DNA from: a virus
DNA length: 37,819 bases
Strand: one strand, 5' to 3'
IMG/VR virus record: IMGVR_UViG_2799112916_000002
Shown: piece by piece, positions 9,391 to 14,486 of the stretch
How the letters are laid out: every line of letters begins with the position of its first letter
How positions within the stretch are numbered: the first letter of the stretch is position 1
Position numbers and translations under genes: made by a program
Notes under the pieces: model-generated
The model's input: only the letters and a program-made list of their open reading frames with translations
Databases searched by the model: none
What the model was told of the DNA's origin: nothing

Positions 9391-10019
9391 CAGATACAAT
9401 TGTTTTATTGGAAGAGAGAAAAGAGATTACCACTTTCATACTGGATGACGGTACAAAAACATTAGTCGATAATGTAGTGACCCCGACAGGCAGTAATCTC
9501 GGCTATGAGTATTCCAATAAGTGTATGGTTGATGATATTCTTTGTATTTCAGACAAATCTGCAATAGGCCGTGAAAGTCTAAAGAAATACACAGGCGACG
9601 ATACAGAAGTTCCTGTCGGCGTTCTTGTCAATGAACCTGTCGTAATGACTGGGGGAGATAGGAAAGGAAGCGTACTTCTATTGGGCGGACTTTATCGCTT
9701 GAAACTGGCTTCAGGAATCGTTAATGTTAAAGCAGGAGACAGAATCAAACTGTCACCGACTGGAGCCATTGTTGACAATGCGGGAGAATTTCTGGCATTT
9801 CATCCTGTAGCAGATTCAGATGAATACAACTATGTGAACTGCTTCCAGGTAGGTTTTGGAGGCAAAGGAGAGAAAGGAGACACCGGAGATACGGGTGCTG
9901 CTACTGTTATCCTCGGGTCTTATGATACTTTCGAAGAACTTATAGCAGCCCATCCAACTGCAAATGAGGGTGATGCCTTCCTCGTGGATGGAGAACTATT
10001 CGTTTGGCATAATGATTAA
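9387..10019 (+). CDS. Capsid decoration paralogue fused to short collagen and a C-terminal half linker domain
   Basis: N-terminal ~155 aa colinear with the 21914 product ([20 protein letters not shown]...GYEYS, PV.MTGG.RK, RLKLASG); then [12 protein letters not shown] and [34 protein letters not shown] start overlaps the GT stop. Confidence 0.75.
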
Positions 10020-10046
10020 AAATAAATTAAAAGAGGTGTATTATAC

Positions 10047-10919
10047 ATGGCATGGACAAATGTTGGTACAATAAAAGGACCAAAAGGAGATACTGGTGAT
10101 AAAGGTGACACCGGAGACACAGGTAAAGCGTTTGAATACTCAGACTTCACACCAGAACAGTTAGCTGGCCTGACCGGTGAAAAAGGAGATACCGGTGATA
10201 AAGGTGATACTGGAGATGTAGGTGCAACTGGTGCTACCGGCGCTACAGGTGAAAAAGGTGATACCGGAGCAACCGGTGCCACTGGTGATAAAGGTGATAC
10301 TGGAGATACTGGAGCTACCGGAGACACTGGGGCAACAGGTGCAACAGGTGCGAAAGGAGATCCATTCTCAATCTATAAGACATATGGATCCGTTGAAGCC
10401 ATGGAGGCCGATGCAGCCAATGTTCCTGAAGGAATGTTTGTAGCTATCCAGTCAACAGTGGAAGATCCTGACAATGCAAAATTATACCTTAAAGGGGCAA
10501 GTGAATTCACTTTCGTCACTGACATGTCCGGTGCAACAGGTCTTAAAGGGGACACCGGTGCCAAAGGTGATACCGGAGCAACAGGCGCTACCGGTGCCAC
10601 TGGTGATAAAGGTGAAACAGGAGACCAAGGTCCACAAGGTGTAACAGGTGATAAGGGAGATACCGGAGCTACCGGTGAAACCGGAGCGAAAGGCGATACT
10701 GGAAGAACCGGAGACAAAGGGGACACAGGTGATACTGGAGCTACTGGCGCAACTGGAGCGACAGGTGAGAAAGGTGATACTGGTGATATGGGTCCGCAGG
10801 GATACAGCACCATCATCAAAGGAAGTTATCCTAGCTATGCTGACCTAATTGCAGCACATCCGACCGGAACAACAGGAGATGCATACCTTGTAAATGGTGA
10901 ACTTTACGTTTATCAATAA
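10047..10919 (+). CDS. Collagen-like fibre protein
   Basis: Long G-X-T/G-X-K runs; [14 protein letters not shown] and KTYGSVEAM...DPDNAKLY...FTFVTDMSG fibre motifs; RBS AGAGGTG. Confidence 0.9.
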
Positions 10920-10944
10920 ACTAAATCCATTAAATCCCTAAATT

Positions 10945-10976
10945 AAGGAAGTGCCGTGCGTACTTCCTTTTTTTTT
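10945..10976 (+). terminator. Hairpin plus T-tract terminator
   Basis: AAGGAAGTGC / GTACTTCCTT (10 bp, one G-U), 5-nt loop, then a T run. Confidence 0.7.
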
Positions 10977-11000
10977 AAAAATTCATAAAGGTGATAAATA

Positions 11001-11342
11001 ATGTCATGGGTAAATGTAGGAAACATAAAAGGAGATACAGGAGAGACAGGTGATGACGGATTCTCACCATACATCACTGTAGACAGAGCTCACGGATTTA
11101 TCGTCTTTGGCGATGAGGATTCAGAGCAGACCGTATACTTCTCAGACCTGAAAGGACCTAAAGGCGATACCGGAGCAACCGGCCCTGCAGGTCCAGTTAA
11201 TGTGACTTCAACTTTGGATACAGCTGACAATACCAATGTGGTTGTCAACAGTGCAATAGCTACAGCCATTCAAAACGTCAACAATCAGATAGGGACAATA
11301 ACAGCTGCACAATCAGCCAACTTAACATTACTTGGGAGCTGA
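11001..11342 (+). CDS. Short collagen-like fibre adaptor
   Basis: [17 protein letters not shown]; GFSPYITV...TVYFSDLKG motif shared with the 13305 product; helical C-terminus; RBS AAGGTG. Confidence 0.75.
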   Translation: MSWVNVGNIKGDTGETGDDGFSPYITVDRAHGFIVFGDEDSEQTVYFSDLKGPKGDTGATGPAGPVNVTSTLDTADNTNVVVNSAIATAIQNVNNQIGTITAAQSANLTLLGS

Positions 11343-11347
11343 TTGAC

Positions 11348-12208
11348 ATGGCCTTCACTCCTCCAGACCTTTCAGAAATCTTGACCAACGAACAGGAATT
11401 AAACAGCAGATTAATCTCATTAAGGACAATACTGCGAAACCAATGGACAGCAATAGGAGACAGCTATTCTACCAATGATTCAATAAATAAATTAGTCACT
11501 GACATGTCAAATCCCCTTCCTTTTGTTGTGAAAAGAAATTCTGAGTATAAGGAGGGCCAGCTCGGAACCAGAGTTGCAGTTACAGGATGTGACGTATATT
11601 CCTGGAACCAATACAATCCGGCAACATATAATGATAATGACTACTGGTATCTGCAATCCTTATCAAAGGCCAAAACCAGCAATACTGCCGTAGCATGGGG
11701 CCAATTCAATACCGGTTCTGTTTTACCAACAGATAAGTTTGATTTAGTCATGTATGGTAGAGATATGGAAAACTTCAACAACGGAGCTTTTTCAGGTGTA
11801 GGATTTACATACACTGTTCCAGCAGCAGAAACTGCATTTTCAGGATTGTTCATAGGAATCACATTGGATTCAGGAACCTATCATCCGGCATATGCAATAT
11901 TCAACAACAGCACCACTCCAACATCAATTGTTAAAATGGATTATGGAACATATCCGTCAGCATCAACTGAATTCAGATTGCTGCTTCAAAACGATCCGGA
12001 TGGTGATTGGCTGAAGCTCTCATGGTATAAGGGAGATGGGGGTGAATTTCTATGGAATGACTTCATAGACTATTCTGATTTGCCTTCCGGTTTTAGTCAG
12101 GTGGAAAATCTTGTATTCGGTAATGTATGTTATGGAACTGGGCTTGGAAGGATGTCTTATGTTCCAAGGTTATGTTTTGCATCCCCATGCAGGTTCAATA
12201 TTTTATAG
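11348..12208 (+). CDS. Putative fibre tip/receptor-binding protein
   Basis: Helical N-terminus with YSTNDSINKL, then aromatic beta-rich domain; within the fibre cluster. Confidence 0.45.
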   Translation: MAFTPPDLSEILTNEQELNSRLISLRTILRNQWTAIGDSYSTNDSINKLVTDMSNPLPFVVKRNSEYKEGQLGTRVAVTGCDVYSWNQYNPATYNDNDYWYLQSLSKAKTSNTAVAWGQFNTGSVLPTDKFDLVMYGRDMENFNNGAFSGVGFTYTVPAAETAFSGLFIGITLDSGTYHPAYAIFNNSTTPTSIVKMDYGTYPSASTEFRLLLQNDPDGDWLKLSWYKGDGGEFLWNDFIDYSDLPSGFSQVENLVFGNVCYGTGLGRMSYVPRLCFASPCRFNIL

Positions 12209-12220
12209 GAGGTAATGTTA

Positions 12221-13303
12221 ATGTCAATTGCAGGAAATGTGGTGGATACAAATAACAAATTAGCTATTGTAAGGAATAACTTGAAAGCATTATTGGAAGA
12301 ACACGGAATCGTATATTACAGCACTGATGACATATTCACATTGGCAAGAAGAGCGTGGTTTCTGGTATATCCTACAAACGGTGCACAGGGCGGAAGCTAT
12401 TCCACAGATGCGGTTGTGGGACAGCCAATCAATTTCAATGTGACTATGAGAGGAGATGATGACAACGATTTGCCGGACGGTTCCGTTGCGGATTTTTTCG
12501 TAAGTGTCAACGGAGGTGGTGAGATTCATCTTATAGGCAAATCTCTAAACGGGGAGGCAAGCTGCCCGTTTGTTCCTCAAAATTCCGGAGATGTCCTGCA
12601 TGTTAGAAGTATGGTCAATGACTGGGCAGGTGTTAATACGGACATTGATGTTTATGCATTCAGATATGAGGACGGATGGGAAGTGAACACTGATGATTAC
12701 ACATTAGTCAAATATCCGACTTCAGCTACCGTTAATGTCATTGAGGTTGATGAATTCAACAGTGATTATGACTATGCAAACGGCATTGAGGTTTCAAAGA
12801 CATACGGAGCACCGCAGGCAGCATACATTATTCCAACAATATTGCTTGATGGAGTTGACTTGTCTGATACCGGAATTCATTTTTCGGCAGTTGTAAGTCC
12901 TATGTATTCATCTTCAAGCGGATGGGCTTGCGGAATATGTCTCTTGAATTCCAAAACCTTAACTCATTGCCGTGACAATAAGATTCTGGAATTGGGTGCA
13001 TATCCAGGCAAAAAAGGATTGAAATATTCAGGAACAGACCATACAATAACGGAAATAAATACAACATCCGGACAGCTGACAATAAACGGAGCTTTCAGAT
13101 TCGACTTGTGGTACGATGGTAGCTATGTTAAAGCTGTAATTGAGCATTACTGGAACGGTACTGTTTATTACAGTTATGAAAGTTCATCTTTACCTTCAGC
13201 AATAGCTGATATGGATACTGTCTTTCCTGCATTCATGATTTATGACTACGGCGGAAAAATAAGATTCAGGGACACATTAATTGAACCATGGAGCAGTGAT
13301 TAA
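12221..13303 (+). CDS. Putative fibre tip/receptor-binding protein (Ig-like plus lectin-like domains possible)
   Basis: Helical N-terminus with YSTDDIFTL resembling the 11348 product; beta-rich remainder; GGAGGT upstream of ATG 12221. Confidence 0.45.
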
Positions 13304-13304
13304 G

Positions 13305-14486
13305 ATGGCAGATTCAACAGAATGGATAGAAATCGGAAGGGTGCAGGGTGATACCGGACCGAAAGGAGATACCGGAGATATCGGCATCGGAACAGTAATC
13401 AAAGGACATTACGAAACATATTCGGAATTTATAGCGATTCATCCTTCAGGCCAGTTGGGCGATGCATACATTGTTGCCGGAAGCTATTACTACTGGAACG
13501 GAACAGGATGGGAAAATGCAGGCTCAATTAAAGGAGATACCGGAGCGGCAGGACCAAAAGGTGATACAGGTGATAAGGGAGATACTGGTGCGAAAGGCGA
13601 TACAGGCAGCACAGGTCAGACTGGAGCAACTGGGCAAAAAGGAGACACTGGAGTTAAGGGAGATACTGGAGACACAGGACCTGCTGGAGATACTGGACCG
13701 GCCGGGCCGACTGGCGACACCGGAGCTACTGGCGTGGGTCTTACTATTAAAGGTTCGTATGATTCTTACGAGGAACTGATTCATGATCATCCGACCGGCG
13801 AGGCTGGTGACGGCTATCTAGTAAACGGATCTCTTTATGTCTGGAACACTAATGCTTGGGAAAACGTAGGAAACATCAAAGGAGAAAAGGGAGACACGGG
13901 TGTTAAAGGTGATACTGGAGCTACCGGTTTTTCACCAACCGTTAATGTTAATCATGAAACTGGCGAAATAGTAATCAGCACTGAAGACGGTTCAGCAACT
14001 ATTTCATTCGCTGAATTAAAAGGGGATACCGGCAATGTGGGTGCAACAGGAGCAACTGGAGAAAAAGGTGACACTGGTGAAACGGGTGCCAAAGGAGACA
14101 CTGGAGATAGAGGTCCTAAAGGTGATACTGGCGTTGGCAGTGATGAGGAAGCAGGCTGGAAATTACCAGTCGATGAAATAAGAACAACCAACACATTACC
14201 AACAGGTATTAGTGCAGGTTATCGCGTAGCTATTGTCACAAGCTCTGTCATGGCCATCAAAAAATATAATGGCTCTTCATGGGAAACTGAATCACTTGAT
14301 CCCTACAGTGTAATTCCATTGAAACATTCAGGAAGTATACAAATGTATTTGGCAAGATCTTCAGGGCCAGTATACATGGGTGTGGATTATGGAGTCTTTG
14401 GAAAATTCCGATTCATGACTCAAGCAGCATATGATGCGTTAAGTAGCTATGATAATGATACAATTTATTTTGTAAGAAGTTCATAA
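13305..14486 (+). CDS. Collagen-like fibre protein with two intact linker domains and a C-terminal TQAAYDAL motif
   Basis: G-X-T repeats; two copies of G(H/S)Y..Y.E.I..HP.G..GD.Y.V.GS.Y.WN...WEN.G.IKG; terminal [21 protein letters not shown] typical of phage fibre ends. ATG 13305 follows the previous stop. Confidence 0.85.

Follow-up and report, generated by a model that had tools for sequence, protein, structure and literature searches.

A collagen-flanking connector domain divided between consecutive fibre genes of a Methanobrevibacter provirus

Described fibre joints and the present locus

In chaperone-usher pili and in archaeal Tafi fimbriae, an incomplete domain that lacks its C-terminal strand is completed by the N-terminal extension of the next subunit, producing a head-to-tail, non-covalent chain. 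Among phages, the T4 proteins gp34, gp35, gp36 and gp37 are encoded by consecutive genes and form successive segments of one fibre. Here we describe a locus that resembles both, located in a 37,819-nt stretch of DNA (IMG/VR record IMGVR_UViG_2799112916_000002; this whole stretch is referred to below as the window), in which consecutive genes for collagen-like fibre proteins divide a small connector domain between them, and in which we infer a comparable complementation between the products. The window is contained in a 2.43-Mb genome; its homologues bear the name Methanobrevibacter, and the host is a member of this genus of gut methanogens. Its gene content, comprising an integrase, an IrrE-like protease, a GmrSD-like nuclease, a cytosine methylase and two capsid-like genes, identifies the element as a provirus with adjoining defence genes.

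The likeness to pili concerns the topology of the joint, and the two arrangements differ in several respects. The divided domain is a 48-residue β-α-β-β-β fold rather than an Ig-like pilin lacking its G strand, and its best fold matches are not pilins; the chain would consist of two or three links rather than a polymer, and its subunits are presumed to be collagen trimers. Pfam scans detected no chaperone or usher families among the window proteins, and the host is an archaeon. To our knowledge, the joints of multi-protein phage fibres are formed by whole domains of separate proteins, not by one domain divided between two genes. Such fibres, including that of T4 and the collagen-like prophage fibres with PfN, Pf2 and PfC domains (PMC3368898), share with the present locus conserved termini, variable bodies and collagen segments separated by small globular domains. 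In the literature searched, nothing relevant emerged on strand complementation in the fibres of phages or archaeal viruses, which is no proof of its absence. Pili already provide the principle, and phages offer precedents for fibres made of several proteins; what appears to be new is a collagen-flanking domain divided between two genes to serve as a joint, of which we found no description.

Anatomy of the intact and the divided domain

All features given here lie on the + strand, and genes are named by their first position. The connector domain is found intact in the putative tip protein (gene 13305, 13305-14486, 393 aa), which contains two copies of 48 residues each (13392-13535 and 13740-13883), as a preliminary description of this DNA had noted. 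An AlphaFold2 model of the intact domain, built from a 20-sequence alignment, reached a predicted local distance difference test score (pLDDT) of 92.8, with strands at residues 2-7, 24-28, 31-35 and 40-45 and a helix at residues 10-16, such that the fourth strand (β4) is part of the fold. Gly-X-Y repeats begin at the last Gly of the domain and stop a few residues before its first strand.

The nearest solved fold is the N-terminal domain of ORF18 from Geobacillus virus E2 (PDB 7chu, residues 4-57; Z 6.8, root-mean-square deviation (rmsd) 1.7 Å, 48 residues), which, like the small domains of phage tailspikes and fibres that were also matched (6e1r, 8kec), belongs to a virion fibre or spike protein; however, it shares only 17% identity with the connector domain and is neither flanked by collagen nor split. 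The trimerisation domain of collagen XV/XVIII, the multiplexins (PDB 3n3f, 3hsh), aligns with VIA-align Z 4.8-5.1 and rmsd 2.3-2.6 Å over 46 residues, with both domains fully covered. The multiplexin domain, of about 54 residues, consists of four strands and one helix, and the match is worth noting because both domains directly adjoin a collagen triple helix, but there is no detected sequence similarity, and the animal domain occurs only C-terminal of the helix and is never split. For a domain so small, fold matches of this kind are suggestive rather than proof, and a Z of about 5 lies below the level of a secure shared fold and might reflect a common arrangement.

A phmmer search of the domain against PDB sequences returned nothing relevant. 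Pfam has no family for it, and Pf2 (PF03406) does not match, whereas in PHROGs it falls within tail-fibre families. In a phmmer search against 1.84 billion representatives, the domain was found in 1,477 clusters, and proteins with several copies were frequent. A shorter form of about 30 residues, which retains the hairpin and the last strand (model positions 18-48) but lacks the first strand and the helix, is common among the fibre proteins of IMG/VR; it recurs in long phage fibre proteins at loci L044, L054, L055, L065 and L068-L070.

In the window, this domain is divided twice. In the list of open reading frames (ORFs), gene 9387 (9387-10019) encodes the 210-aa proximal fibre protein, composed of an N-terminal anchor domain (residues 1 to about 155), four collagen triplets and a C-terminal three-quarter domain, β1-helix-β2-β3 (9900-10016; hereafter also half-domain), that ends in ...FVWHND immediately before TAA. 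Across a 27-nt, A/T-rich spacer (junction 1, 10020-10046), which contains two in-frame TAA codons and a ribosome-binding site (AGAGGTG, 10032-10038), follows gene 10047 (10047-10919). Its 290-aa product, the extension module, begins M-A-W and comprises an N-terminal donor strand (residues 2-11, 10050-10079), collagen, a globular insert of about 55 aa, a second collagen stretch and another three-quarter domain (10806-10916) that ends in ...LYVYQ before TAA. Junction 2, an 81-nt spacer (10920-11000), holds a terminator-like hairpin with a 10-bp stem followed by T9 (10945-10978, z -3.8) and the ribosome-binding site AAAGGTGA, which precedes the ATG at 11001. The 113-aa product of gene 11001 (11001-11342), a distal collagen segment, starts MSWVNVGNIKG and consists of a donor strand (11004-11033), a short collagen stretch, a small β domain, further collagen and a conserved C-terminus, ...LLGS, with which relatives encoded by one gene also end. 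As the preliminary description had noted, the tip protein also opens with a similar strand; it is an orphan one (13320-13349), with its W at residue 7. Collagen segments follow, and a Phage_tail_C motif (PF24243, E 3e-11) lies at 14403-14477. In the Pfam scan, collagen (PF01391) scored 92.6 bits in the 10047 product and 60.8 bits in the 13305 product (cut-off 27.2), and the PHROGs matches of the fibre proteins included many tail-fibre families. A second β-rich insert, of about 32 residues, is repeated between collagen segments (11055-11150, 13930-14030); present in the 11001 and 13305 products and in the one-gene relatives, it matches no family.

The two gene ends thus fall inside the 48-residue domain, directly after its third strand, and the genes that follow open with the missing fourth. 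A hidden Markov model (HMM) of the intact domain, 48 positions long, aligns with the C-terminus of the 9387 product at positions 1-37 and with that of the 10047 product at positions 1-35 (E about 3e-15), in each case stopping exactly at the stop codon, and matches the N-termini of the 10047 and 11001 products over positions 39-48, which bears out the earlier claim of two cuts at the same turn before the last strand. No domain residue is missing at either cut, and the AlphaFold2 model places the break in the loop between strands 3 and 4. At the DNA level, the last-strand motif occurs five times in the window, at the five places just described, against 0.06 expected from shuffles. The split domain is therefore a real observation that cannot be ascribed to chance.

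Conservation of the division and rearranged relatives

A split confined to this genome would have refuted the preliminary description, and the split is not so confined. Among the listed clusters of the 9387 family (120 representatives, 83-97% identical, 201-210 aa), the protein ends at model position 35-38 in 120/120. The double split is also present in G161, in G119, in an IMG/VR contig and in five metagenome contigs, and G126 carries a single split, at site 1, with a 3-nt spacer. In every split-type locus read, a strand-first gene follows the half-domain gene. An apparent C-terminal half-domain in P0124 was rejected as a contig-end artefact, and L071 likewise ends at a contig end.

Conservation of both half-domains equals that of the remainder of the protein, with a ratio of non-synonymous to synonymous polymorphism (pN/pS) of 0.08 at pS 0.40-0.59. 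The donor strand has a pN/pS of 0.37-0.39; W3, V6, G7 and G11 are invariant in nine homologues, and changes occur at alternate positions. These comparisons indicate that the split is an old, maintained feature and not a product of decay. Nonsense mutations in a longer fibre gene of a defective provirus were the obvious alternative, as provirus genes often decay and the 10047-type gene of L076 is frameshifted, but decay would not place the cut at the same position in all 120 listed clusters, equip each downstream piece with a start codon and a ribosome-binding site, or leave strong purifying selection on both sides. We reject this explanation, whose probability is close to nil; the preliminary description, which had seen in the separate ribosome-binding sites a sign against random decay, is upheld by the constancy of the cut and the pN/pS value. 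In L076 (3152-4005), the C-terminal half-domain lies in another frame, through a sequencing error or because the copy is broken.

The possibility that the three ORFs yield a single polypeptide, whether stop codons are read through, the message is recoded or an intervening sequence is removed, also deserves mention, since genes 9387, 10047 and 11001 share one frame in the window and their spacers, of 27 and 81 nt, are multiples of three. However, between two and five stop codons, not all of one type, interrupt each spacer, and several spacers contain TAG or TGA besides TAA. In relatives, the junction 1 spacers measure 3, 19, 27, 30, 31, 33, 34 or 36 nt and the junction 2 spacers 11 to 94 nt, with 19, 31, 34, 53, 85 and 94 nt among the lengths that are out of frame. 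As spacer length varies and the frame is not kept, the ORFs are separate genes and read-through is excluded. Each downstream gene, moreover, has its own ribosome-binding site, and the terminator-like hairpin intervenes at junction 2. With the spacer survey contradicting it, translation as a single protein was rejected as extremely improbable. The stem of the hairpin (GGAAGTRC/GYACTTCC) is kept in seven related loci (L027, L028, L037, L074-L076 and L079), among which the loop differs in length and sequence; it is absent from L073, where the junction 2 spacer is 11 nt. The hairpin may control how much proximal fibre protein is made relative to distal.

Relatives in which the same parts are joined differently provide a further line of evidence. 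P0392 (locus L077) encodes in one gene the N-domain, collagen, an intact connector domain, collagen and a tip, with the intact domain at the exact position of the 9387 cut and the rest of the module absent from the locus. This protein aligns end to end: its first part corresponds to the 9387 product as far as strand 3, and the remainder to the 13305 product from the second intact domain onward. Such relatives show that the 9387 half-domain is a true homologue of the intact domain at that position. In L030-L032 and P0394, a 9387-type N-domain and the ...LLGS C-terminus form one polypeptide without a connector domain. The existence of one-polypeptide relatives with the same N-domain and ...LLGS end implies that the pieces belong to one structure. 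Junctions also lead to other modules: in L079 (P0276), junction 2, complete with half-domain, hairpin spacer and M-S-W strand, leads directly to a 13305-type tip, and other bodies lie downstream of junction 1 in L080 (P0378) and L029. With a conserved junction and differing bodies, recombination at the junction could exchange distal modules, and their exchange is well supported by these sequences, as is the modular, swappable fibre envisaged in the preliminary description.

The same relatives bear on the possibility that the split is a mere by-product of cassette exchange, with the connector serving as a recombination joint whose boundaries are neutral and play no structural role. The composition of P0392 is what would be expected from recombination inside the domain, and the same junctions precede different distal modules. 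A neutral boundary, however, is not expected to yield a pN/pS of 0.08 on both halves together with invariant buried residues in the donor strand, and exchange alone would leave the upstream protein without its distal part, even though the fused relatives indicate that both belong together. As a complete explanation this is quite unlikely; it fits better as the evolutionary side of strand complementation than as an alternative to it.

Probable strand complementation, the fibre and its context

The sequences establish the anatomy, its conservation, purifying selection and the existence of fused and swapped relatives, and the intact domain has a predicted fold. The reading that we favour, at a probability of roughly 60%, is that consecutive fibre proteins restore the split connector domain by strand complementation and so form a modular fibre. 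The locus would encode a trimeric, collagen-like virion fibre of the Methanobrevibacter provirus built from several gene products, in which a 48-residue domain that normally lies between collagen segments is split before its last strand at two gene boundaries. The upstream protein would end with β1-helix-β2-β3, and the first ten residues of the downstream protein would supply β4, running directly into that protein's own collagen helix. On assembly, the N-terminal strand of the downstream trimer would insert beside β3 of the upstream trimer, restoring the domain and joining the two collagen rods non-covalently, with the topology seen when a donor strand completes a pilus subunit. The 9387 product would act as the anchor through its cement-protein-like N-domain, and the fibre would probably project from the capsid. 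Physical complementation, the trimeric state and the location on the capsid are the parts of this scheme that go beyond the observations.

To model the joint, an 83-residue chain across junction 1, with the stop codons TAA and TAG read as Gly, was submitted to AlphaFold2 as a monomer together with six homologous read-through chains. The half-domain was predicted with pLDDT 83-87, the spacer was disordered and the mean pLDDT was 67.6; the first eight residues of the 10047 product formed a paired strand, in a block with pLDDT of about 70. Residues 5-70 of the predicted structure superpose on 7chu and on the collagen XVIII domain, and the donated strand occupies the place of β4. At moderate confidence, the model is compatible with complementation; it says nothing about affinity.

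Several points weigh against complementation. This single-chain model, besides its moderate confidence, rests on the same homology that is under test. Outside the Methanobrevibacter virus lineage, no second split was found among 34 IMG/VR loci with the domain and the 150 best representatives; an exact-pattern scan of IMG/VR yielded only two loci, one of the same lineage and one with a bacterial orphan strand. The three-quarter domain might be stable alone if β4 is an edge strand. Furthermore, tip proteins of the 13305 type always begin with such a strand (82/120 proteins), including those of L030-L033, four loci in which no half-domain was found in the stretch read; a genome-wide search of G126, which holds L030, also found none in that provirus. 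Tips with the strand in loci lacking the half-domain mean that an N-terminal strand alone does not imply a half-domain partner, and the proposal in the preliminary description that the 13305 strand complements a half-domain accordingly does not hold in its simple form. A comparable case is found in L036, an IMG/VR contig of a bacterial phage (GC 56%), where, in the baseplate region (4853-5867), the gene for a 272-aa protein ending in a complete variant domain overlaps the start of a 69-aa ORF that encodes a donor-type strand followed by collagen triplets.

These orphan strands, in L030-L033 and beside the complete variant domain of L036, favour the main rival, namely that the products do not reassemble at all. 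The 9387 product would then decorate the capsid on its own, with a short stub of collagen and a three-quarter domain that is stable by itself; the products of genes 10047, 11001 and 13305 would attach elsewhere or form separate fibres, and the W..VG..G strand would serve generally to cap the N-termini of these collagen helices or to nucleate them. This arrangement would leave unexplained why the cut falls in a constant loop although other copies of the domain are intact, why each half-domain gene in all split-type loci read is succeeded by a strand-first gene, and why the flanking parts form one polypeptide in relatives; nor does it sit well with half-domains whose conservation equals that of the remaining protein. 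We consider it unlikely, though less so than the other alternatives.

In viruses of the L030-L033 type, the tip strand must have another partner or role. A speculative candidate partner is the 12215-type protein, encoded by the gene immediately upstream of the tip gene. In the window (13230-13349) and at the same place in L028-L033, this protein ends in a conserved hydrophobic hairpin and then E-P-W, and the tip gene either starts after a gap of 1 nt or overlaps this end. Its C-terminus and the orphan strand of the tip may form another joint of the same kind, although the connector-domain HMM detected no similarity in that C-terminus. The 12215 gene (12215-13303, 362 aa; its stop lies 1 nt 5' of the tip gene start) and gene 11348 (11348-12208, 286 aa) encode fibre-associated proteins of no known family, the latter with a conserved N-terminus and a remainder that varies among relatives.

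The location of the fibre is suggested by its anchor. Residues 1-154 of the 9387 product share 59% identity with a stand-alone paralogue of 165 aa (21896-22393), encoded directly 5' of the two capsid-protein genes. Neither Pfam nor PHROGs matched the anchor domain to Phage_cement families; an Atlas feature search with a language model, which is a lead only, gave the paralogue scores of 0.95-0.96 against clusters with such families in 13-41% of their members, and the paralogue is probably a capsid cement or decoration protein. As the anchor is paralogous to this capsid-adjoining, cement-like protein, the fibre is probably attached to the capsid; the tip carries a Phage_tail_C motif, so that a location on the tail is a possible alternative. 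A weaker relative of the anchor domain is encoded at 7229-8005. In the P0437 family, from other viruses, a 9387-type N-domain carries a non-collagen C-terminal domain of about 230 aa, which suggests that this N-domain is an anchor displaying different appendages. Farther along, 3' of the capsid genes, two very large, adhesin-like proteins of 2053 and 1860 aa (25074-36817) contain bacterial Ig-like, macroglobulin-like and right-handed β-helix domains; they may be viral or host genes.

The connector domain itself is widespread, has no Pfam model and adopts a fold resembling the multiplexin trimerisation domain, and it is thereby relevant to the nucleation of collagen helices in prokaryotes and viruses. 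If the halves reassemble, this would be a case of strand complementation joining collagen-like trimers in a virus fibre and, for protein engineers, a natural and very small two-part connector for collagen-like proteins, of about 38 + 10 residues. A bolder extension, which we offer tentatively and with considerable doubt, is that the split domain acts as a reusable snap fastener for collagen trimers, any three-quarter-domain end accepting any strand-first protein. In that case, one virus could produce fibres of variable length, since the 10047 module, with both ends, could concatenate; it could also carry alternative tips of the 11001 or 13305 type, and recombination at the junction could pass tips around within a population. 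Together, this would amount to combinatorial display on the capsid of an archaeal virus and to a two-part tag of natural origin for joining collagens. Strand complementation at these junctions, if true, would explain the shuffling of distal fibre parts in the abundant viruses of gut and rumen methanogens.

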